From the NCBI RefSeq assembly GCF_041248615.1, contig NZ_CP158426.1: 64,000 bases of DNA. One strand, 5' to 3'. Below, piece after piece: positions 12,030 through 37,378 of the stretch (position 1 is its first letter; every line of letters starts with the position of its first letter). Origin of the DNA: Escherichia coli (GTDB lineage Bacteria > Pseudomonadota > Gammaproteobacteria > Enterobacterales > Enterobacteriaceae). A program made the position numbers and the translations under genes. The notes beneath the pieces were generated by a model that was given only the letters and a program-made list of their open reading frames with translations, ran no database searches and was not told where the DNA came from.

Positions 12030-13177
12030 TATTGCATTGCTTTATAAGCGGTTACTGCCTCGGATACAACCTCGCTGTTGGCATCAAGACCGGAAATCTG
12101 TGCCAGCGCGGCTTGTGGGCCTTTGTCGGCAATCAGCGCTGCCAGTTCCTGAGCCTGCGGATCATCTTCACTGCGGAAGTGCATTGCAGCGGCAATACCT
12201 TCAATCAGGTTTTTATGTGGCAGACCATATTCCAGCGTTCCGAGCAGTGGCTTGATCAGACGGTCGCCAGCACTCAGTTTACGCAGCGGCTGACGGCCTA
12301 CGCGCTCTACATCATCTTTCAGATACGGGTTCTCGAAACGACCGAGGATTTTCTGGATGTACGCCGCATGTTTGTCCGCGTCAAAGCCGTAGCGCTTGAT
12401 CAGTACCGCACCGCTTTCTTCCATCGCACCTTTTACCACCGCGCGGATTTTCTCGTCGAGAATCGCATCACGAATGGTCTGATGACCGGCCAGTTTTCCG
12501 AGGTACGCGGTTATAGCATGACCCGTGTTCAGGGTGAAGAGTTTACGTTCGACAAATGCCATTAGGTTGTCGGTTAACTCCATGCCTGGGATGTTCGGCA
12601 GCGCGCCTTTGAACTGCGTTTTATCAACAATCCATTCGCTGAATGTTTCTACCGTCACTTCCAGCGGATCGTTGGTTGCAGAAGCCGAAGGCGGCACGAT
12701 GCGGTCAACGGCGGAATCGACAAAGCCAACGTGTTCTTCTACCCACGCTTTGGCATCTTCCGGCAGGGCGTTCATCACATGGCCTTTCAGCTGCGTGGTG
12801 CCGCGTACCATGTTTTCACAAGCGATGATGTTCAGCGGGGATTCATTACCTTGTTCTTTACGTTTCACCAGCCCTTTGGCGATAGCCGGAGCAATACGTT
12901 CCAGCACAACCGGGCCAACGGCGGTAGTGACTAAATCGACCTGAGCAATCAGATCAACGACATCATCACCAATGCTGCTGACAGCATTGACGCCGGAAAC
13001 GGTATCTACCTGCTCGGTTTCACCGACCACATGAACCTGATAGCTATGACGGGCATTCAGGGCATCAAGTACCACCTGATTGACATCGGCAAACGTCAGT
13101 TGGATACCCGCGTCTGCCAGCAGTTTACCGATAAAGCCACGACCGATATTACCTGCGCCAAAATGTAATGCTTTCAT
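12029..13177 (-). CDS. mtlD: mannitol-1-phosphate 5-dehydrogenase
   Basis: ORF 12029..13360; start placed at the ATG giving [17 protein letters not shown]... (382 aa, Rossmann GxGxxG). Confidence 0.95.
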
Positions 13178-21209: not shown

Positions 21210-21959
21210 TCACTGATCTCCTTCGGTCAACGGAGATTGTATTTTCCGCATTGATTCTCCTTTAAGTTCGATCTTGATACTGCCATGAACCAGTCGATCT
21301 AGGATGGCATCCGCATGTGTGGAGTCTCCGATCATTTTGTACCAGTTTTCCACCGGCAACTGGCTCACTACGATGATTGAGCCTCGTTGGTACATCAGAT
21401 CCACTATTTCCAGCAGGTCGCTACGCTGTTCTGATGAGAGAGGTTCCAGCCCCCAGTCATCCAGAAGCAGCAGATCGCTATTATTCAGCCTGGTCAAAAG
21501 TTTGCTGTATCTTCCATCAGCATGCCCCTGATAGCACTGTTCCATCAGCGCTTTAAGGCGATAATAGTAGACCTTGTATCCCTGTCGGCAGGCATTATGA
21601 CCAAGTGCACATGCCAGGAACGTTTTACCGCTGCCGGTGGCCCCGGTCAGTAAAATATTTTGTTTCAGGGTTAACCAGTTTCCCTGACTGAGTGAACGGA
21701 TGAGGGCCCTGTCCAGCCCTCTATTGTTACGATAATCCAGCTTTGATAACTCAGCATTAAGTCTGAACCGTGCATGTTTGATCAGACGCTCTGCCTTCCT
21801 GTTTTCACGGCAGGTTAGTTCTTCTGCTGTCAGTAATGACAGGCGTTCTTCGAAGCCCAGCTCCTGGTATGTGCCCGGCTGAGCAAGTTGCTTTTTAAGC
21901 GCATCACGGAAGCCGGTGAGTTTAAGTGCGGTCAGTTGTTCGTAAAGATGATTCATCAT
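21210..21959 (-). CDS. istB: IS21-family helper ATPase IstB
   Basis: 249-aa ORF with Walker A GATGSGKT and DnaC-like AAA+ fold signature. Confidence 0.9.
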   Translation of the reverse strand: MMNHLYEQLTALKLTGFRDALKKQLAQPGTYQELGFEERLSLLTAEELTCRENRKAERLIKHARFRLNAELSKLDYRNNRGLDRALIRSLSQGNWLTLKQNILLTGATGSGKTFLACALGHNACRQGYKVYYYRLKALMEQCYQGHADGRYSKLLTRLNNSDLLLLDDWGLEPLSSEQRSDLLEIVDLMYQRGSIIVVSQLPVENWYKMIGDSTHADAILDRLVHGSIKIELKGESMRKIQSPLTEGDQ

Positions 21960-21970
21960 TGGATCCCGTA

Positions 21971-23512
21971 TCAGTGGTAATACTCACTGCCGCGTACGTT
22001 TTCGTGTTCCATCGTGGATAACAGATCTGGTTTTGGATCCTGAACAGGTTGTTTATCCAGACCTTTTTCCAGGATCGATTTAATACCTGACAGACGCCAT
22101 ACCTTTGTTTTCAGAGCTCTTGCACATGCTGCATTAAGTCTGGCTTTACTGTATTTTTTATGAAGGTTCAGGAGTCCAAGGCAGAAGCGATAGCTTTGTT
22201 CCGGATGTGGACGAGAGTTCAGTATATGAAGCACATAACTATGAGTTTCACTGCCTATGTGCCCCGCCCATTCCAGAAGACGCTCTGGCGTCCAGGTGGC
22301 ATGCTGTCGATGAGCTTCAGGCATGTGCTCGTTGCGGGTACTGTAGCCATAAGTACGCTTGCGCGGGTGCACAGCAACCTCCTGCCCCTGATTGAAGAGT
22401 CTTACCAGTTCTCCGGAGATCCATGCTTCCAGTTGCTGGCCTAACAGCGAACATGGAACCGAGTAGTAATGTTTGTCGATTTCCACGTGGTAATCGGCAT
22501 GAACTCTGACTTTCTTCACCAGGGTGTAACTGTAACTGGCTTCAGGAAGAGGCTTCAGTGCGGGTTTATCAAGCTGGATGAAGAGTTCTGCACGTGAATA
22601 ACCCAACTTCTGCATTATTTTGTTATTCAGTCTTTCCAGCAACTCCCGAATGCGCTGATTAAGCGATGCAAGGCTGTAGAAGATCTCATGCCTGATTCGG
22701 GCCATGATCCAGCGTTCAACAACCTGAACGCCAACTTCAGCTTTGGCTTTATCTTTCGGTTTACGTGGCCGCGCAGGCAAAACTGCGACATTATAATGCT
22801 CAAGCATCTGCTGGTAGGTAGGGTTAACGTCAGGATCATACTTACATGCCCTGGATGTGGCGCTTTTCAGATTGTCCGGAACAACAAGTTCAGGAACGCC
22901 ACCCAACCACTGGAAGCAGCGAACATGACTCATCACCCAGTCTTCAAGCTGCTGAGACCAGGTGGCCTCTGCCCATGTGTAACTTGATGCCCCGAGAACA
23001 GCTACGATGACCTGAGCAGTTCTTATTTCTCCGGTCTCAGGGTCGGTAACGCCAACGGTAGGTCCACAGTAATCAACGAAAAGTTTTTCGCCAGCTTTAT
23101 GTACCTGACGCATTGATGGTGAAGTGGTTTTGAGCCATTCACGGTACATCCGGCAGTAATGGTTATAGCTGTAAAAACCGCCTGGATTACGCTCACAGTA
23201 TTCTTCCCAGAGTAGCTGCAGCGTCACGCATTTATTACGCAGTTCCCGGTGTACTGTAGCCCAGTCAGGCAGAGAGTGCTTCTTCATCTTAACCTGGGTC
23301 TGAAGGAACGCATGTTTTAGTTTTGTATCATCCCATCCTGTAGGTAAGGGCCACTGCTTTATGCCAAGTTGAGCCGCCCGATTAGCATATCTGGATACAA
23401 CGGAAGGGGAGATTGCAAGACTACGACCAATTTGTCGATGGCTGAGTCCAACACCGTATTTAAGCCTAAGAATTTCTTTAAGTTTTCTCATAGAAATTGG
23501 AACTGTTGGCAT
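21971..23512 (-). CDS. istA: IS21-family transposase IstA
   Basis: 513-aa ORF with N-terminal HTH and integrase-type DDE core; immediately upstream of istB. Confidence 0.9.
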   Translation of the reverse strand: MPTVPISMRKLKEILRLKYGVGLSHRQIGRSLAISPSVVSRYANRAAQLGIKQWPLPTGWDDTKLKHAFLQTQVKMKKHSLPDWATVHRELRNKCVTLQLLWEEYCERNPGGFYSYNHYCRMYREWLKTTSPSMRQVHKAGEKLFVDYCGPTVGVTDPETGEIRTAQVIVAVLGASSYTWAEATWSQQLEDWVMSHVRCFQWLGGVPELVVPDNLKSATSRACKYDPDVNPTYQQMLEHYNVAVLPARPRKPKDKAKAEVGVQVVERWIMARIRHEIFYSLASLNQRIRELLERLNNKIMQKLGYSRAELFIQLDKPALKPLPEASYSYTLVKKVRVHADYHVEIDKHYYSVPCSLLGQQLEAWISGELVRLFNQGQEVAVHPRKRTYGYSTRNEHMPEAHRQHATWTPERLLEWAGHIGSETHSYVLHILNSRPHPEQSYRFCLGLLNLHKKYSKARLNAACARALKTKVWRLSGIKSILEKGLDKQPVQDPKPDLLSTMEHENVRGSEYYH

Positions 23513-23693
23513 AGGTATCCTTTACCGGAATGGCAAAAGATACAGATCAACACACCTGTGAAGTTCCAATAACATTGATGGAGATCACTGAATAACAAAA
23601 TGAGTCAAAAGTGATCTCCATCGATGTTATTCAGCGATCTGTTCAAATGTTATTACCCGATCTCGATGGAAGTTATTGAGTGATCTCCTTTCA

Positions 23694-24723
23694 TGAAAAT
23701 ACGCACTGCGGATAAGTTTACCGGTCAGGTCGTGGTGATAACGCTGTGTGCGGCCGTCAAAGCCGGTTTCCTGTATCAGCCGGTCGAGTACATCGTAACG
23801 GAAGGTGGTGTGGCTGCCGTTTTCACTGGTCAGGCGGATGACCCGTCCGGCAGCATCGTATTCCATACTGCGCGTCAGACCGCCCTGTGTGGTACGGATG
23901 GCCTTTCCCCACGCATCGTACTGTGTCCCGTTTCTGCTGCCGTCCGGGGCAATGACGGCGGTCAGGTCACCGGCGGCGTTGTATTCATACCGCGTTTCAT
24001 GGCCCTGCGTGTCTTTCACCGCAATTAACTGTCCACGGCTGTCGTATGCGCGGTACTGACTCAGCCCTTCCTCGCGGTGCACCGCCGTCACCTGACCAAA
24101 ACGGTCATGGTCATAACGGGTTACATAACCGGAACAGTCAGTGACGGTCAGCAACTGACCGTAACGGCTCCATGTCATGGTTTTCCGGCTGCCGGTGGCA
24201 TCTTCCGTTGCGCAGGGTAAGTCACTGTGTGGATTATCATAACGGTAGCGGGTGATATCGCCGTTGTGTGCGGTTTCCTGAATCAGACGGCCGGATTCAT
24301 CATATTCCCGGCGCAATTCCAGCCCGTCAGGCCCGGTGGCTGACGTTAACTGGCTGTGGTGGTTATAGTAAAATGCCGATGCCCTGCCATCCGGTGTGGT
24401 GATGCGCGTGATGAGTCCCGTCACCACATCCGGGCTGTACTCAGTCGTCCGGCCTGCGGCATCCGTCTGTGCCTTAAGCCTGCCCACCGCGTCAAACTGA
24501 CTCTGCGTGACGCTGCCGTCCGCGTGTTCCTTTTTCACCACCCGCTTCAGCCCGCCTTCGCCCTGCGTGTGCAGCACTTCACGGCGGTCCAGGCTGTCGG
24601 TGATGGTGATGTGGTCTTTCTCATACTGATACGTGTAGCTTAAGCCTGCCGGGTTTAGCTGTTCTGTCACCCGCCCGTCACTGTCGTAACGGTAACGGAT
24701 TTCCGGCCGGCCCGTGTGACGGT
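23694..24723 (-). pseudogene. rhs middle segment (YD-repeat region) lying between the two IS insertions
   Basis: ORF 23627..24670 with repeated YD/RYxYD motifs (…RYRYDNPH…YVTRYDHDRFGQ…YEYNAAGDL…); frame continues upstream to the IS3-family boundary. Confidence 0.8.
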
Positions 24724-25478
<755 letters not shown>

Positions 25479-25582
25479 ATCAGCATACTTGTCCTTAGCC
25501 TTCTGCAGTGACAGCTGGTAGTACAGCGTGCTTCTGGCCAGCCCTGCAGCCTTTAACAGGTCAGACTGGCAGTGTCCGCACC

Positions 25583-26113
25583 TCAGGCTCCGGATGACTT
25601 TCGTTTTTTCTCCAGCTCCTGGCGCTTTTTTTCCAGGAGATGCTCCTGCATGGCTTTCAGATATGCATTTTCTGCGCGAAGATAACGCAGCTCATTCTTC
25701 ATCTCTTCCGGCGTCATGTTTGCCTCGTTTTCATGGGTATCATCAGAACGGGTCATGCTTTTCTCCTTCCTGCGCCTGATAAAGGCCTCATTACCAGATT
25801 TGCGGTAGCCTTTTATCCAGTTTTTAACCGTGTTGTGGCTGGGAATGTTAAACCGGGCAGCTACCCGGGGTAGAGACTCAGAATGCCCGAGAGCATAAAG
25901 AACCACGCAAAGTTTATCTTCAGGAGAATAGCTACGCTTGTGTCTGCAATCCAGTGCCCGAGGACCGTGAAGAAGAAAAAGATTAATCCAGTGTGAGAGG
26001 CTGGTGTGAGAAAGTTGAAAGAGTTTTGCCGTAGAAATGATGCCTGTATGACCAGCCAGGTAATGATTTACAGCGGCAAGTTTTACTTCAAATGAATGTT
26101 TCATAAACTGCAC
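25583..26113 (-). CDS. IS3-family transposase OrfA (HTH)
   Basis: 176-aa ORF with HTH region and leucine-zipper-like C-terminus; contains A-AAA-AAG slippery heptamer near its 3' end. Confidence 0.85.
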   Translation of the reverse strand: MQFMKHSFEVKLAAVNHYLAGHTGIISTAKLFQLSHTSLSHWINLFLLHGPRALDCRHKRSYSPEDKLCVVLYALGHSESLPRVAARFNIPSHNTVKNWIKGYRKSGNEAFIRRRKEKSMTRSDDTHENEANMTPEEMKNELRYLRAENAYLKAMQEHLLEKKRQELEKKRKSSGA

Positions 26114-26155
26114 CTTCAGATGTCAGATTATGTCCAACATTTGGGGTGCAGTTCA

Positions 26156-27203
26156 GGTGCGCCACCATCCGGCCCCGGTATTTATCATCGTAAGTAAAGC
26201 TGCGCACCTGTGTATTGCTGCGGTCATACACCGCCGCCAGTTCGCCGCGTGGCGTCCAGCCATAGCGCACCAGCGGCGCGGCAGGTAAATTCTCCGGGTA
26301 TTCCGGGTCGTGCGTCAGCCACACGGCAGACAGACGGATGCCGTTGTCCCGGCCATATTCGGTGTAACCCGGCAGGGTATCAGGAAAAACGGACGGTTCC
26401 ATCCCGCCGGAAATGGCCTGCTGCCGGGCTTCTTCTGCCCGCTGCGCCTGCGTGGTCAGTACCAGCCGGAAGTGACGCCCGGCACCATCCGTCACGCCGG
26501 TGATTTCGCCGCTGAATTCGCCGCCAGCCTCACGGTGGAACGTCTGTGTGCGCCCGAAGCGGTCCACCAGCCCGGTCAGTACCCGGTACGGCGGCAGCGG
26601 CGCAGGCAGCACCTCATCCGCCTCCGGCACCCGCTCACACCAGCCGAGTACCCACCACGGCCCCTGCGGACTGTTCGTCGCCAGATAACGATGCGGACTC
26701 AGGCGAAGCTCTTCCGGCAGCGCCTGCCAGAGTGCGGCCAGCCGGTGACCTTCATCCAGTTTCGCCACGCCGCCGCGCACCAGCCAGAGTGACTCGCTGC
26801 GGCTGTAACCGTCCTCACCGGGAAACAGGTGCTCAAAATACAGGCTTCTGCCGCCGTTATCACTGAGTATCAGTGTGTTATCGCGCAGCTGTAAGCGGAT
26901 ATCCGCAGGCATTTTCCAGCCGGGGCCGAGGCTCCCCACCGGCGCGGGCGTTTTTGTCCGGTAACTGCTGTAGGTGCGGGAGAGGATGAACGGCAGCGGG
27001 CCGGGCAGGGCAAGGTCGGTTTCGCCGGGAAGGACCTTCGCGCCGAGCAGCGGATTGACCGGATGGCCGGACGTCACCCCGCCGGGGCACACCGAACAGG
27101 CCACGCCGGTGGGGGCACCGATGCGCACCCCGGCTGAACCCTGGACAATGCTACCGCCATACTGCGTCATGTCGCCCTGACGCGCCGCCGGTTTTCCGCT
27201 CAT
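26156..27203 (-). pseudogene. rhsA: rhs N-terminal segment (PAAR-like N-terminus), truncated by the IS3-family insertion
   Basis: Starts MSGKPAARQGDMTQYGGSIVQGSAGVRIGAPTGVACSVCPGG..., the conserved Rhs N-terminus; divergent from yibF as recalled for rhsA; reading frame runs into the IS. Confidence 0.82.
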
Positions 27204-32913: not shown

Positions 32914-34452
32914 ATGACCAATAATCCCCCTTCAGCACAGATTAAGCCCGGCGAGTATGGTTTCCCCCTCAAGTTAAAAGCCCGCTACGACAACTTTATC
33001 GGCGGCGAGTGGGTAGCCCCTGCCGATGGTGAGTATTACCAGAACCTGACGCCGGTGACCGGGCAGCTGCTGTGCGAAGTGGCGTCTTCGGGCAAACGAG
33101 ACATCGATCTGGCGCTGGATGCTGCGCACAAAGTGAAAGATAAATGGGCGCATACTTCGGTGCAGGATCGCGCGGCGATTCTGTTTAAGATCGCCGATCG
33201 GATGGAGCAGAACCTCGAACTGTTAGCGACCGCTGAAACCTGGGATAACGGCAAACCCATTCGCGAAACCAGTGCTGCCGATGTGCCGCTGGCGATTGAC
33301 CATTTCCGCTATTTCGCCTCGTGTATTCGGGCGCAGGAAGGCGGTATTAGTGAAGTGGATAGCGAAACCGTGGCTTATCACTTCCACGAACCGTTAGGCG
33401 TGGTGGGGCAGATTATTCCGTGGAACTTCCCGCTGCTGATGGCGAGCTGGAAAATGGCCCCCGCGCTGGCGGCGGGCAACTGTGTGGTGCTGAAACCCGC
33501 ACGTCTTACCCCGCTTTCTGTACTGCTGCTAATGGAAATCGTCGGTGATTTACTGCCGCCAGGCGTGGTGAACGTGGTCAACGGTGCAGGTGGGGAAATT
33601 GGCGAATATCTGGCGACCTCGAAACGCATCGCTAAAGTGGCGTTTACCGGCTCAACGGAAGTGGGCCAACAAATTATGCAATACGCCACGCAAAATATTA
33701 TTCCGGTAACCCTGGAGCTGGGCGGCAAATCGCCAAATATCTTCTTTGCTGATGTGATGGATGAAGAAGATGCCTTTTTCGATAAAGCGCTGGAAGGCTT
33801 TGCACTGTTTGCCTTTAACCAGGGCGAAGTTTGCACCTGTCCAAGCCGTGCTTTAGTGCAGGAGTCTATCTACGAACGCTTCATGGAACGCGCCATCCGC
33901 CGTGTTGAAAGTATTCGTAGCGGTAACCCGCTCGACAGCGTGACGCAAATGGGCGCGCAGGTTTCTCACGGGCAACTGGAAACCATCCTCAACTACATTG
34001 ATATTGGTAAAAAAGAGGGCGCAGACGTGCTCACCGGCGGGCGGCGCAAGCTGCTGGAAGGAGAACTGAAAGACGGCTACTACCTCGAACCGACGATTCT
34101 GTTTGGTCAGAATAATATGCGCGTGTTCCAGGAGGAGATTTTTGGCCCGGTGCTGGCGGTGACCACCTTCAAAACGATGGAAGAAGCGCTGGAGCTGGCG
34201 AACGACACGCAATATGGCCTGGGCGCGGGTGTCTGGAGCCGCAACGGTAATCTGGCCTATAAGATGGGGCGCGGCATTCAGGCCGGGCGCGTGTGGACCA
34301 ACTGTTATCACGCTTACCCGGCACATGCGGCGTTTGGCGGCTACAAACAATCAGGTATCGGCCGTGAAACTCACAAGATGATGCTGGAGCATTACCAGCA
34401 AACCAAGTGCCTGCTGGTGAGCTACTCGGATAAACCGTTGGGGCTGTTCTGA
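32914..34452 (+). CDS. aldB: aldehyde dehydrogenase B
   Basis: ORF 32824..34452; start at ATG 32914 ([17 protein letters not shown]…, 512 aa) preceded by AAGGAG; ALDH motifs ELGGKSP and catalytic Cys region EVCTCPSR. Confidence 0.95.
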
Positions 34453-34729
34453 TATAAGAAGCTGGTCGCATTGGGTATTCATTGCCTGATGCGACGTTTG
34501 CGCGTTTTACCAATTCAAATGTCTACGTCTTGAATGACTGAATATTGATTGAACTTAATTACGAGCATCCTCGCATCTTTTCAACAAGTTACTGCACACC
34601 GTTATTCTCCTTCCGAGCGGCATTCCTGAGTCAACTTTATCCCCCTGACGGCCCATATAAATCGCGCTATCGTGATTGTTATCGCTAATTGTGTGTGTAT
34701 CGTGTGTATAATCATGGAAGGGCAGGGAT

Positions 34730-34915
34730 GTGAAAAGTGCAGACGTGATCGCCATCCTGAAGCAGCATGGCTGGGAACATATTCGAACCCGTGGCAGTCA
34801 TCATCAGTTCCGCCACCCTGTTCATCCGGGTCTGGTGACGGTTCCGCACCCTAAAAAAGATATTAAGCCCGGTACGCTGGCGCAAATTGGGCGTCAGGCT
34901 GGTTTAACATTTTAA
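34730..34915 (+). CDS. hicA: HicA-family mRNA interferase toxin
   Basis: 61-aa ORF (GTG start) MKSADVIAILKQHGWEHIRTRGSHHQFRHP...; HicA/YcfA-like GSHH motif; followed 16 bp later by a HicB-like gene. Confidence 0.7.
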   Translation: MKSADVIAILKQHGWEHIRTRGSHHQFRHPVHPGLVTVPHPKKDIKPGTLAQIGRQAGLTF

Positions 34916-34931
34916 AATTTCAGGAGGCAAT

Positions 34932-35342
34932 ATGTTTTATCCCGCCTATATCCACAGTGATCCTGACGGCAGTGCCAGCGGTTTTTTCCCTGATGTTCCA
35001 GGCTGTTATTTTGCTGGTGATACGCTGGACTACGCTTTCCAGGATGCGCGAAGTGCACTGGTCGCGCACTTCGAAACCTTATGCGAGATGAATGAAGAGT
35101 TGCCGCTTCCAGGCTCTGTGGAAACACATCTGGTCCAGCGTGCGCAGGACTTTATTGGCGGGCAATGGTTGCTGGTGGATATCAATATGAATCAGTTCGA
35201 AGGTCGGGCTGAACGTATCAATATTACGATGCCAAAAAGATTACTGAACAAGATTGATACCTACGTGCGCAATAACCCAGACTATGCCAACAGAAGTGCG
35301 TTTCTGGCGGAAGCTGCCCGGCGTGTATTGCCGGGCGTTTAA
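34932..35342 (+). CDS. hicB: HicB-family antitoxin with C-terminal ribbon-helix-helix DNA-binding domain
   Basis: 136-aa ORF with strong RBS AGGAGG; N-terminal HicB signature …GFFPDVPGCYFAGDT…; C-terminal RHH-like …NITMPKRLLNKID…. Confidence 0.75.
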   Translation: MFYPAYIHSDPDGSASGFFPDVPGCYFAGDTLDYAFQDARSALVAHFETLCEMNEELPLPGSVETHLVQRAQDFIGGQWLLVDINMNQFEGRAERINITMPKRLLNKIDTYVRNNPDYANRSAFLAEAARRVLPGV

Positions 35343-35413
35343 TCTCGCGTTTCGATGGTTGGCGGGCAACCGCACCGATATGTTGATACTGATAAGACGC
35401 GTTAAGCGTCGCA

Positions 35414-37378
35414 TCATGCGCTGGTTTCCTCATTCACCCAGATCCGCATTTCGCCTTCACCCCGGTTGGCCCAGCTAAACCACGGGATAAAGGTCAGGGT
35501 TTGCGGCTGGCGTTTGGCTGGCGCGCTGTCGTAATGCCACAGCGGTTGCTGCTCTGGATTACTTTGTTCATACCGGTAACCCGGTGCCTGGATTAAGATC
35601 TTATGGCTGAACAATCCCTTGCCTTCAAAGGTCGTAAATGGCGCATCGGCGGGCAGCCACAGGTTATGTAGTGACTCGCCGTTGTCGGCCTGTTCCAGGC
35701 AATACACCAGCGGGCCGCGCTGAATCGCCACTTTTCCGGCGACGTGACGCACCAGCGGGTTACCGTAAACGCGGCGTACCGGCATCGGCAAAGTCAGATT
35801 CAGCGTATCGCCCTCCTGCCATTCGCGGGTAATGTGCAAATACCCTTTACGAATATCCTGCCCGACCTCTTCCCCATTCAATATGATCTGCGGCTGTGTG
35901 CACCAGTCCGGCAGACGTAAAGCCAGCGTATGACGCACCGGCTGGGGCGATTCAACCGCAATCGTCACCTGCTCCTGCCACGGATAGTTTCCGCTAACCC
36001 GCAGACGCAGCATGCCATTTTCTACCGGCACTTCCATGCTGTTTCCTGCGTAGATGTTGATATACAACGCATCTTCACGCGGCGTGTAGAGATAATGACC
36101 AATCGAGGTTAGCACGCGGGCGATATTTGGCGGACAACAAGCGCAACCAAACCAACGCTGGCGGATCGGCTTAACGTGATCGTAGATATGGTTGAATTTT
36201 AACGTTTTTGGATGCACTTCCAGCGGATTAACGTAGAAGAAATGTTTGCCATCCAGCGCCATGCCGCCGAGCACGGTGTTGTACAGTGCGCGCTCCATCA
36301 CATCGGCATATTGACTGTCGCCTTCCATTTCCAGCATTCGCCGGGCGAACATCATCAGGCCGATGGAAGCACAGCTTTCGGCGTATACCGTGTCATTCGG
36401 CAGATCGTAATCGCTGCTGAACGCTTCGCCGCTGCTTTGTGAGCCAATGCCGCCGGTAATATATAACTGACGCTGGGCCATATTGTTCCACAGCCGCAGG
36501 CAGTCCTGACGCTTGCTTTCATCGTGACTTAAACGCGCGAGATGCGCGACGGCGGTCATCAGGTAGACAAAACGTACCGCGTGACCAATGGCGGTTTGCT
36601 GCTGTGCGATGGGCAAATGCGCCTGGCTGTAGGCTTTGTCTTTCACCATCCACGCCGGGCCGTAGGTGTGCCAGTGCGAGGTCTGCCCGCGCTTTTCATA
36701 TTCCTGGTCGTAATAGTGCGGTTGCGCACCACGCTGTTCGACAAAATAGTTCGTCAGCGCCAGGTAGCGCGGCTCTTCGGTCACTTCATACAGGCGCATT
36801 AGTGCCAGTTCAATTTCCGGGTGACCAGGATAACCGTGTAACTTACTTTCACCTGGACCAAATACGCTGTCGATATGATCGGCCAGACGGCAAACCACTT
36901 CCAGCAAGCGCCGTTTTCCCGTGGCCTGGAAGAAGGCGACTCCGGCTTCAATCAGATGACCGGCGCAGTAAAGTTCATGACACTCCGCCAGATTGCTCCA
37001 GCGTTCTTCGGGCGCTTTTACCGTAAAGTAAGTATTGAGATAGCCGTCTTCGCACTGGGCGGAAGCGACCAGTTCGATTACCTCGTCGGCGGTTTTTTCC
37101 AGTTCGGCGTCCGGCTTCTGGCACAGCGACCAGGCTACCGCTTCCAGCCATTTGGCGACGTCGCTGTCCTGAAACACCATCCCGTAAAATTCACCCTCCT
37201 GAAGTCCGGCGGCAATGCGAAAGTTTTCAATCGCATGGCTGGGTTCCGCTTCTGGGATACGATCGTTCAAGGCATCCCACTGATAAGGAATCACCACGTC
37301 GCGGACCAGTTGTTGGTACTGACCGAGGAACGGATCGCTGACCGTCAGTTTATGCAGATCGACTTCCGAAATGTTCAT
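35414..37378 (-). CDS. glycoside hydrolase family 127 protein (DUF1680; beta-L-arabinofuranosidase-like)
   Basis: ORF 35414..37426; start placed at the ATG preceded by AAGGAG (MNISEVDLHKL…, 654 aa); contains WFGCACCPPN and YAESCASIG, matching the Cys-rich zinc/catalytic site I recall for HypBA1-type GH127. Confidence 0.8.
   Translation of the reverse strand: MNISEVDLHKLTVSDPFLGQYQQLVRDVVIPYQWDALNDRIPEAEPSHAIENFRIAAGLQEGEFYGMVFQDSDVAKWLEAVAWSLCQKPDAELEKTADEVIELVASAQCEDGYLNTYFTVKAPEERWSNLAECHELYCAGHLIEAGVAFFQATGKRRLLEVVCRLADHIDSVFGPGESKLHGYPGHPEIELALMRLYEVTEEPRYLALTNYFVEQRGAQPHYYDQEYEKRGQTSHWHTYGPAWMVKDKAYSQAHLPIAQQQTAIGHAVRFVYLMTAVAHLARLSHDESKRQDCLRLWNNMAQRQLYITGGIGSQSSGEAFSSDYDLPNDTVYAESCASIGLMMFARRMLEMEGDSQYADVMERALYNTVLGGMALDGKHFFYVNPLEVHPKTLKFNHIYDHVKPIRQRWFGCACCPPNIARVLTSIGHYLYTPREDALYINIYAGNSMEVPVENGMLRLRVSGNYPWQEQVTIAVESPQPVRHTLALRLPDWCTQPQIILNGEEVGQDIRKGYLHITREWQEGDTLNLTLPMPVRRVYGNPLVRHVAGKVAIQRGPLVYCLEQADNGESLHNLWLPADAPFTTFEGKGLFSHKILIQAPGYRYEQSNPEQQPLWHYDSAPAKRQPQTLTFIPWFSWANRGEGEMRIWVNEETSA

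Follow-up and report, generated by a model that had tools for sequence, protein, structure and literature searches.

The hicAB pair that lies between aldB and a GH127 gene in this Escherichia coli is, very probably, a functional class 4 toxin–antitoxin operon with a putative proximal promoter (P2) that HicB would repress and possible distal control through CRP-S, and an ancestral, vertically inherited resident of its neighbourhood. The pair occupies positions 34730–35342 of the analysed stretch of DNA, 64,000 nucleotides of contig NZ_CP158426.1 (assembly GCF_041248615.1), hereafter called the window. As a toxin–antitoxin system it is canonical, a textbook class 4 HicAB that is annotated by RefSeq in hundreds of genomes and was already known. 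The pair itself thus adds nothing new, and the useful outcome of the analysis lies in the corrections that it brings to a reading of the locus as an acquired island.

The gene pair and its products

The toxin gene, hicA (34730–34915, + strand), has a GTG start and encodes a protein of 61 residues, beginning MKSADVIAILKQHGWEHIRTRGSHHQF and carrying the motif Gly22-Ser23-His24-His25, which by homology is a HicA mRNA-interferase toxin (RefSeq WP_000833473.1). It is followed on the same strand, after a spacer of 16 bp (34916–34931), by hicB (34932–35342, + strand), which has an ATG start and encodes 136 residues (WP_000499746.1) that contain FPDVPGCYFAGDT. HicB is, by homology, both antitoxin and repressor, with a partial RNase-H-like N-terminal domain and a C-terminal ribbon-helix-helix (RHH). 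Both reading frames are intact and the order is that of a toxin-first bicistronic operon with a short spacer. A preliminary description of this DNA had proposed just such a pair at these coordinates, namely a HicA-like frame with a GSHH motif followed 16 bp later by a HicB-like frame with a C-terminal RHH, and this is upheld by Pfam, by matches in the PDB and by predicted folds. It had also suggested profile-HMM searches against the HicA (PF07927) and HicB families, and both are matched over nearly the whole or the whole of the Pfam model: HicA_toxin (PF07927) with an E-value of 2.1e-23 over model positions 2–58 of 58, and HicB_lk_antitox (PF15919) with an E-value of 3.9e-35 over positions 1–123 of 123. 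Judged by these scores, the two matches are far above chance level. Identical proteins are named type II toxin-antitoxin system HicA family toxin and HicB family antitoxin by RefSeq/PGAP. No curated NCBIfam model matched HicA or HicB, and Rfam gave no match over 34300–35600 at E-values up to 1. In the literature searched, neither an experiment on an orthologue of the present hicAB nor a paper on an aldB-linked hicAB was found.

The nearest solved structure to HicA is that of Burkholderia pseudomallei HicA (4c26/6g26), with which it shares ~52–54% identity (PDB phmmer E-value 1e-16) in an alignment that spans 58–59 residues and pairs both Gly22 and His24, the latter with the residue mutated to alanine (H24A) in 4c26. 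Across an alignment of enteric, Pasteurellaceae, Massilia, plasmid and phage homologues Gly22 and Ser23 are invariant and His24 is at least 90% conserved. The AF2 model of HicA (pLDDT 94) has helices at residues 3–12 and 47–57 that enclose strands at 16–21, 24–28 and 35–39, giving an αβββα, dsRBD-like topology that superposes on the HicA of 6g26 with a TM-score of 0.89 and an rmsd of 1.0 Å. The catalytic histidine (His24 in B. pseudomallei HicA and His23 in the K-12 protein) and the preceding Gly-Ser are both present. The relatives of HicA are ribosome-independent, mRNA-cleaving RNases that use the His24 region, and by homology the same activity is predicted for the present protein.

HicB matches B. 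pseudomallei HicB (6g1n/6g26) over its full length, the RHH included, at ~35% identity (E-value 1e-24), and Yersinia pestis HicB3 (4p78), also over its full length, with an E-value of 5e-21. Since its closest solved relatives are thus B. pseudomallei HicAB and Y. pestis HicA3B3, it is placed with the RHH-type antitoxins. The match to K-12 HicB (6hpb) is restricted to the N-terminal 66 residues (E-value 2e-5), because the K-12 protein has an HTH in place of the RHH. In the AF2 model of HicB (pLDDT 88), whose top full-length Foldseek matches are again B. pseudomallei HicB and Y. pestis HicB3, the partial RNase-H-like N-terminal domain resembles that of 6g1c (TM-score 0.83–0.86, ~2 Å rmsd), and the topology is βββα(α)β. 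Residues 93–133, ERINITMPKRLLNKIDTYV...NRSAFLAEAARRVL, align with the RHH of both relatives, and C-terminal helices are modelled at 102–114 and 121–135. The ribbon is not formed in this monomer model, in which the pLDDT dips at residues 91–100. The ribbon strand, AERINIT, is invariant across enteric orthologues and distant homologues, which fits a DNA specificity shared among them. By homology to the solved complexes, the N-terminal domain would cover the active site of HicA and the C-terminal RHH would dimerise and bind DNA. In the Gerdes 2024 classification, class 4, or ‘classical’, hicAB comprises the pairs whose HicB has an RHH (PMC10865869), and the present pair belongs to this class.

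The end of hicB is overlapped by a GC-rich hairpin (35315–35337, + strand), picked up in a pattern scan, in which a 9-bp stem is followed by TTTAATCT; as about one such site is expected by chance, it is only a weak candidate for a terminator.

Conserved blocks and proposed control in the hicAB leader

The leaders of hicAB from 16 genera cannot be aligned except in four blocks, which lie at fixed distances from the GTG of hicA. The most distal, Box 1 (34560–34575), is a CRP-S-like palindrome, TACGAGCATCCTCGCA, that matches TGCGA-N6-TCGCA at 9 of 10 positions, has its centre at −162 relative to the hicA start and is a candidate Sxy/CRP site. TGCGA-N6-TCGCA is the CRP-S core, in which a C and a G make the distinction from canonical CRP sites (PMC1635313), and the two near-invariant columns of Box 1 are precisely the C and G that separate CRP-S from the canonical TGTGA/TCACA. 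Sites of at least 8/10 occur at −160 to −165 in two E. coli loci (L004 and L005) and in five other genera, and the site is perfect in L004 and in the Lelliottia and Pseudocitrobacter loci (L021 and L023). The background for matches of at least 9/10 is 0.015 per 245 nt, and of the five perfect CRP-S sites in 466 kb of loci four are Box 1 or Box 2 sites upstream of hicA. The window itself reads TACGA...TCGCA, with an A replacing an important G in the left half, and in four genera Box 1 is degenerate or absent.

Box 2 (34611–34628), found in the same 16-genus alignment, conserves the pattern TT.CG...C...TTCC.G, a CRP-S-like half element, and is a possible second CRP(-S) site; at its position the Serratia orthologue has a perfect CRP-S site, TGCGAGCCTCTTCGCA. 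Box 3 (34664–34676, + strand), conserved across genera as GCG.TA..GTGAT, admits two readings. It is a candidate −10 element (TATCGT, 34668–34673, of the TAnnGT type) of a distal promoter, P1, in which case Box 2 would be centred near −61. Alternatively, it may be a diverged distal HicB operator, its position matching that of the distal ATACACAC-NN-TACACA site of distant homologues.

Closest to the gene, Box 4 (34693–34712, + strand) consists of the tandem GTGTGTAT-CG-TGTGTATAAT laid over a perfect −10, TATAAT (34707–34712), and is a candidate for both the HicB operator and the proximal promoter P2. It is near-invariant in the 16 enteric orthologues. In more distant homologues its place is taken by GTGTGTATAATACACAC (Massilia and a Pseudomonas phage) or by GTGTGTAT-GG-TGTGTATATT (Yersinia and a Salmonella plasmid), and these homologues also carry an inverted copy, ATACACAC-NN-TACACA, on the upstream side of a good −35. 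The tandem GTGTGTAT repeat is a probable operator of HicB. Repeat finding at the locus returned short repeats at chance level and, beyond these, nothing but the TATCGTG pair from which Boxes 3 and 4 were recognised. A sigma-70 pattern scan detected no canonical promoter upstream of hicA, because a −35 element is absent, and folding of the putative leader RNA (34680–34775) gave no significant structure (z = +1.6).

The two genes also differ in their translation starts. The hicA initiation region (34716–34733, + strand) combines a weak Shine–Dalgarno sequence (SD), GGAAGGG, with a GTG placed inside ATGTGA, such that an ATG-TGA start-stop overlaps the GTG. An ATGTGA or GTGTGA start is found in 14 of the 16 enteric orthologues, in Avibacterium and in K-12 hicA. 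Sites of the AUGUGA type divert or re-route initiation, and K-12 hicA is among the atGTG genes listed (PMC9841429). By contrast, hicB is preceded by a strong SD, AGGAGG (34922–34927, + strand), conserved as caGGAG in orthologues. From the end of the −10 to the GTG of hicA the distance is 18 nt, against 19 nt for the TATACT at K-12 hicA.

Taken together, these elements suggest a mechanism in which HicB would repress P2 at the −10 (34707–34712) that lies inside the tandem repeat. Transcripts from P2 are predicted to start at ~34719, at or inside the weak SD of hicA, and would for that reason yield mainly HicB. The contrast between a GTG embedded in ATGTGA and the strong AGGAGG and ATG of hicB would bias output in the same direction, so that an excess of antitoxin would be favoured despite the toxin-first order. 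Through the distal CRP-S-like site of Box 1, possibly with Boxes 2 and 3, both genes may come under Sxy/CRP-dependent transcription, a proposal modelled on P1 of K-12 hicAB, whose two-promoter control the layout of the leader resembles. This regulatory anatomy of Boxes 1–4 is partly new, and its transcription starts, HicB binding and Sxy dependence are inferred. A wider reading, put forward tentatively and with less than even confidence, is that hicAB of this RHH-type lineage is conserved as part of the Sxy/CRP-S (competence/starvation) regulon across the Enterobacteriaceae, with two promoters on the pattern of K-12 hicAB and with translation of the toxin throttled by the start-stop over the GTG. 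Jointly with this, and no more firmly, it may be supposed that the distal CRP-S promoter gives toxin and antitoxin while the proximal, HicB-repressed promoter gives antitoxin only. If so, CRP-S control and attenuated toxin translation would be recurrent, selected features of HicAB and not a peculiarity of K-12.

Distribution and origin of the pair

Across 5426 complete E. coli genomes, over which all counts were taken, a full and intact hicAB is present in 505, in single copy and always on the chromosome, never on a plasmid; in 488 of these hicB directly adjoins GH127. GH127 is itself intact in 2314 genomes, so that ~1800 keep the glycoside module without hicAB. A further ~3800 genomes, K-12 included, have at this site nothing more of the pair than the 3′ stump of hicB; they match no more than query positions 530–578/613, the last 50–85 nt of the gene. 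In the K-12-type order, aldB leads into a BIME of two REPs and ~37 nt of filler. After these comes ...ACCTACGTGCGCAATAACCCAGACTACGCC..., the remaining 3′ end of hicB, which has itself lost a further internal segment and over which no feature is annotated in MG1655. The K-12 genes ysaD and ysaC are likewise stumps, the first of GH127 and the second of the gene for the AraC regulator (corresponding to window positions 35516–35705 and from 39727, respectively). These three remnants indicate that the module is ancestral and was deleted in K-12.

Other E. coli loci preserve different portions of the same arrangement. Isolate 362 is 100% identical to the window over 34453–35413 and 35750–37350 and has the order yiaY-aldB-hicA-hicB-GH127(−)-MFS(−)-AraC-sgbE. 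The fullest locus, that of AST85, reads aldB-hicAB-small membrane ORF-yiaWVUT-GH127-MFS-AraC, and Escherichia sp. E1V33 also has the full layout, with yiaWVUT between hicAB and GH127 and with hicA frameshifted. The allele that lacks hicA together with 5′ hicB is shared by E. coli, down to its breakpoint, with E. whittamii and Escherichia sp. MOD1-EC7003.

The edges of these deletions are marked by REP elements, of which the window holds four head matches against 0.35 expected. A degenerate REP (34484–34512, + strand), with an exact head, GCCKGATGCGRCGY, at 34484–34497 (0 mismatches), lies just after aldB, and K-12-type genomes are homologous to the window as far as 34512; in 3885 genomes the sequence shared past the aldB stop is limited to the first 57–60 nt. 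A second REP (35390–35419, − strand; head at 35406–35419, 1 mismatch) lies inverted just downstream of hicB, overlaps the GH127 stop and corresponds to the REP downstream of yiaT in AST85 (12738–12767 of locus L005). The window aligns with the AST85 locus up to position 8913 of the latter, after which 3.8 kb, comprising the small ORF and yiaWVUT, is absent from the window. The left edge of this deletion is the last ~25 nt of the small membrane-protein gene (35343–35367, − strand), which in fuller loci is convergent with hicB, and the junction adjoins the second REP, which forms the right edge. The preliminary description had noted a REP-like site in a 276-bp region upstream of hicA and had suspected a recombination scar there. 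The REP is confirmed, in a gap that measures 277 nt from the aldB stop at 34452. The REPs do sit at rearrangement breakpoints, but the scars are those of deletions, of hicA and 5′ hicB in K-12-like strains and of yiaWVUT in the present strain, and not of an insertion of hicAB. Insertion of the pair between two REPs was considered and rejected, since in other genera the segment between the REPs is ancestral and since a stump of hicB persists in K-12.

A scan of one genome per species recovered orthologues that are 74–86% (HicB) and 66–81% (HicA) identical, in genera that include Pseudocitrobacter, Enterobacter (several species), Yokenella, Citrobacter, Lelliottia, Trabulsiella, Pluralibacter and Phytobacter. 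In tblastn searches with the neighbouring proteins, the hicAB neighbourhood with GH127-MFS proved to be shared by at least ten other enterobacterial genera, and over more than ten genera the synteny partners of hicAB are aldB, yiaT/U, GH127, MFS and sgbE. The order is yiaY-aldB-yiaWVUT-hicAB-small ORF-GH127-MFS...sgbE in Pseudocitrobacter and aldB-yiaU-yiaT-hicAB-GH127-MFS-sgbE in Enterobacter, and in Yokenella, with yiaY-aldB-hicAB-GH127-MFS, it is identical to that of the window. The divergence of HicB tracks that of its neighbours, which are 80–86% (GH127) and 83–90% (MFS) identical, and the same synteny at neighbour-like identities indicates vertical inheritance. Between genera dS is saturated for both hicA and hicB, with dN ~0.15–0.2 and dN/dS ~0.05–0.15. 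Plasmids and phages yielded no homologue of at least 60% identity, only paralogues below 60%; two ‘100%’ plasmid matches are 4.9-Mb chromosomes mislabelled in PLSDB. The locus in the window has no integrase, tRNA or direct-repeat island borders and no mobile-element context. On this sequence comparison hicAB is an ancestral, vertically inherited part of the aldB-GH127 neighbourhood, of which different lineages lost different parts: K-12 lost hicA, most of hicB and GH127-MFS-AraC, and the present strain lost yiaWVUT. Within E. coli, ~9% of genomes keep this resident of the enterobacterial neighbourhood, and most of the rest have lost it by deletion. It would offer an unusually stable, vertically inherited chromosomal toxin–antitoxin pair for evolutionary study.

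Among other explanations, an anti-phage role by abortive infection, in which HicA would be released on infection and shut the cell down, fares best and is compatible with the reading preferred here, but is itself improbable. A part in defence has been proposed for HicA domains (PMC10865869), and P2-like and other phages carry paralogues. Strain PK12, moreover, has a type I restriction endonuclease gene inserted between aldB and hicAB and a Fic gene likewise inserted beside the pair, in the manner of a defence hot-spot. Against this, none of the defence-system protein models of PADLOC-DB 2.0 matched HicA or HicB, the window locus has metabolic neighbours only, and long-term fixed synteny with low turnover across genera is unlike typical defence islands.

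It is considerably less probable that the pair is a decaying, non-functional relic with an inactive toxin, en route to a K-12-type stump. The loss of the pair from most E. coli would agree with decay, as would a frameshift in hicA, a His24Pro substitution or the deletion of hicA with retention of hicB in other lineages, toxin losses that show the function to be dispensable. In the window, however, both frames are intact and all family-conserved residues are kept; the regulatory boxes are conserved, the dN/dS values are low, and three E. coli loci whose whole aligned regions, flanks included, differ by 2–3% in DNA encode one and the same HicA.

Least probable of all is the proposal of the preliminary description that the pair is an addiction module which came in with an acquired glycoside-utilisation island (GH127-MFS-AraC) or serves to stabilise it: the adjacency of hicB and GH127 in most hicAB-positive E. 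coli and in many genera, and the REPs that flank the pair, would suit it, but it founders on the ~1800 genomes in which the module is stable without the toxin–antitoxin pair, on the K-12 stumps, on the yiaWVUT genes that separate hicAB from GH127 in AST85 and E1V33, on synteny over many genera with parallel divergence of HicB and its neighbours, and on the missing island borders. Comparative genomics of the aldB-sgbE interval, which the same description had recommended, thus speaks against an acquired module: the interval is an ancestral enterobacterial neighbourhood under differential, lineage-specific loss and not the site of an inserted island.

Comparison with known systems

The comparisons of operators and CRP-S sites made here are drawn from a review (PMC11594946). 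The closest solved relatives of the present proteins, those of B. pseudomallei HicAB (4C26, 6G1N, 6G26), are encoded in the same toxin-first operon, in a host that differs at the level of phylum and in a different genomic context. According to the review, the operator of B. pseudomallei hicAB shares sequence with both the −10 and a predicted CRP-S motif (PMC11594946); there it is a single palindrome, whereas the candidate operator of the enteric orthologues is a tandem direct repeat.

In common with the present pair, HicA3-HicB3 of Y. pestis (4P78, 4P7D) has an HicB of the RHH type. Two operator sites flank the promoter of hicA3B3, the main one (BS2) lying over the −10 (PMC11594946), and the placing of Box 4 over the −10 appears analogous to BS2. 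Homologues of the present family on plasmids and phages show this two-operator layout, whose distal operator would in the window be replaced by, or have diverged into, Box 3. The spacer between the two genes is 174 bp in Y. pestis and 16 bp here.

HicAB of K-12 (yncN/ydcQ; 6HPB) belongs to the same family and shares the gene order and the GTG inside ATGTGA. Despite this, it is not orthologous, since its HicA is only 28% identical, its HicB has an HTH where the present HicB has an RHH, and it lies at a different locus, at 1.51 Mb. K-12 hicAB is transcribed from a CRP-S/Sxy-dependent P1, and a HicB-repressed P2 near the start codon yields only HicB (PMC11594946, PMC6957337). Were the boxes described here functional, Sxy-linked two-promoter control would extend to a second, non-orthologous HicAB lineage. 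A comparable scheme is known from toxTA of Haemophilus influenzae (HI0660/HI0659), a toxin-first operon with a CRP-S promoter and an internal promoter repressed by the antitoxin (PMC6957337); here the likeness is regulatory only, the protein families (RelE/ParE-like) being unrelated to HicAB.

Remnants and rearrangements around hicAB

An unannotated 3' stump of hicB is retained in K-12 and in ~3800 other complete E. coli genomes. In the K-12-type strain C600 it occupies positions 8151-8252 of the comparison locus, corresponding to 35259-35371 of the window, and in MG1655 it is positioned between yiaW and aldB. The left breakpoint of this stump is identical in E. whittamii and Escherichia sp. 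MOD1-EC7003; a single old deletion allele is therefore common to several species.

Convergent with hicB lies a gene for a small membrane protein of 108 aa (8885-9211, minus strand, in the AST85 locus), which is found in this arrangement in AST85, Pseudocitrobacter and Enterobacter sp. kpr-6. In the window, the last ~25 nt alone survive (35343-35367, minus strand), and the K-12 version is an internally deleted gene of 47 aa, annotated as hypothetical. The order of the surrounding genes also differs, being aldB-yiaWVUT-hicAB-small ORF-GH127 in Pseudocitrobacter and aldB-hicAB-small ORF-yiaWVUT-GH127 in Escherichia (AST85), and a block transposition has therefore taken place in one lineage.

In some strains the flanks of aldB are an insertion hot-spot. 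In strain PK12 a Fic-family gene has been inserted between yiaY and aldB (3638-4933 of its locus), and the interval from aldB to hicAB has received a gene for a type I restriction endonuclease (6620-7699). Elsewhere in the window (~21626-27203), according to the annotation of comparison locus L001, an RHS/DUF6531 toxin gene is interrupted by the IS3-family element IS1397, and the split gene is followed on its 3' side by an orphan Imm57 immunity gene and hypothetical genes.

Toxin-first decay, in which hicA is degraded ahead of hicB, was observed in other lineages. The toxin gene is frameshifted in Escherichia sp. E1V33 (169-350 of locus L007), and in Enterobacter chuandaensis the catalytic residue His24 is replaced by proline, giving GSPH (5801-5983 of locus L016). 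In two Enterobacter MAGs hicA is absent or partial and hicB is kept; in Lelliottia nimipressuralis hicA is lost and just fragments of hicB persist.

A 1.2-kb contig in a 'Collinsella sp.' MAG bin (JAIJJM010000854.1) encodes the end of aldB, hicAB and the end of GH127, with proteins 97-100% identical to those of the window (100% for HicB and the aldB and GH127 ends, 96.7% for HicA); it is almost certainly E. coli sequence contaminating the bin. The sole matches of at least 99% identity in a HicB search of PLSDB plasmids, NZ_CP134663.1 and NZ_CP141089.1, are 4.9-Mb E. coli records and evidently chromosomes.

The hicA leader and start site

Upstream of the candidate HicB operator, the leader contains three conserved boxes (34560-34676): a CRP-S-like palindrome (Box 1, 34560-34575), TT.CG...C...TTCC.G (Box 2, 34611-34628) and GCG.TA..GTGAT (Box 3, 34664-34676). 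Their centres are 52 nt apart and Box 2 lies ~61 nt from the transcription start implied by Box 3, a spacing that would fit a class-I-type activated promoter.

The GTG start codon of hicA lies within ATGTGA (34728-34733), an ATG-TGA start-stop and possibly a conserved means of braking or re-initiating toxin translation. Of the 16 enteric orthologues, 14 share this arrangement, as do Avibacterium and K-12 hicA, the latter not an orthologue (9285-9290 of locus L033; cf. PMC9841429).
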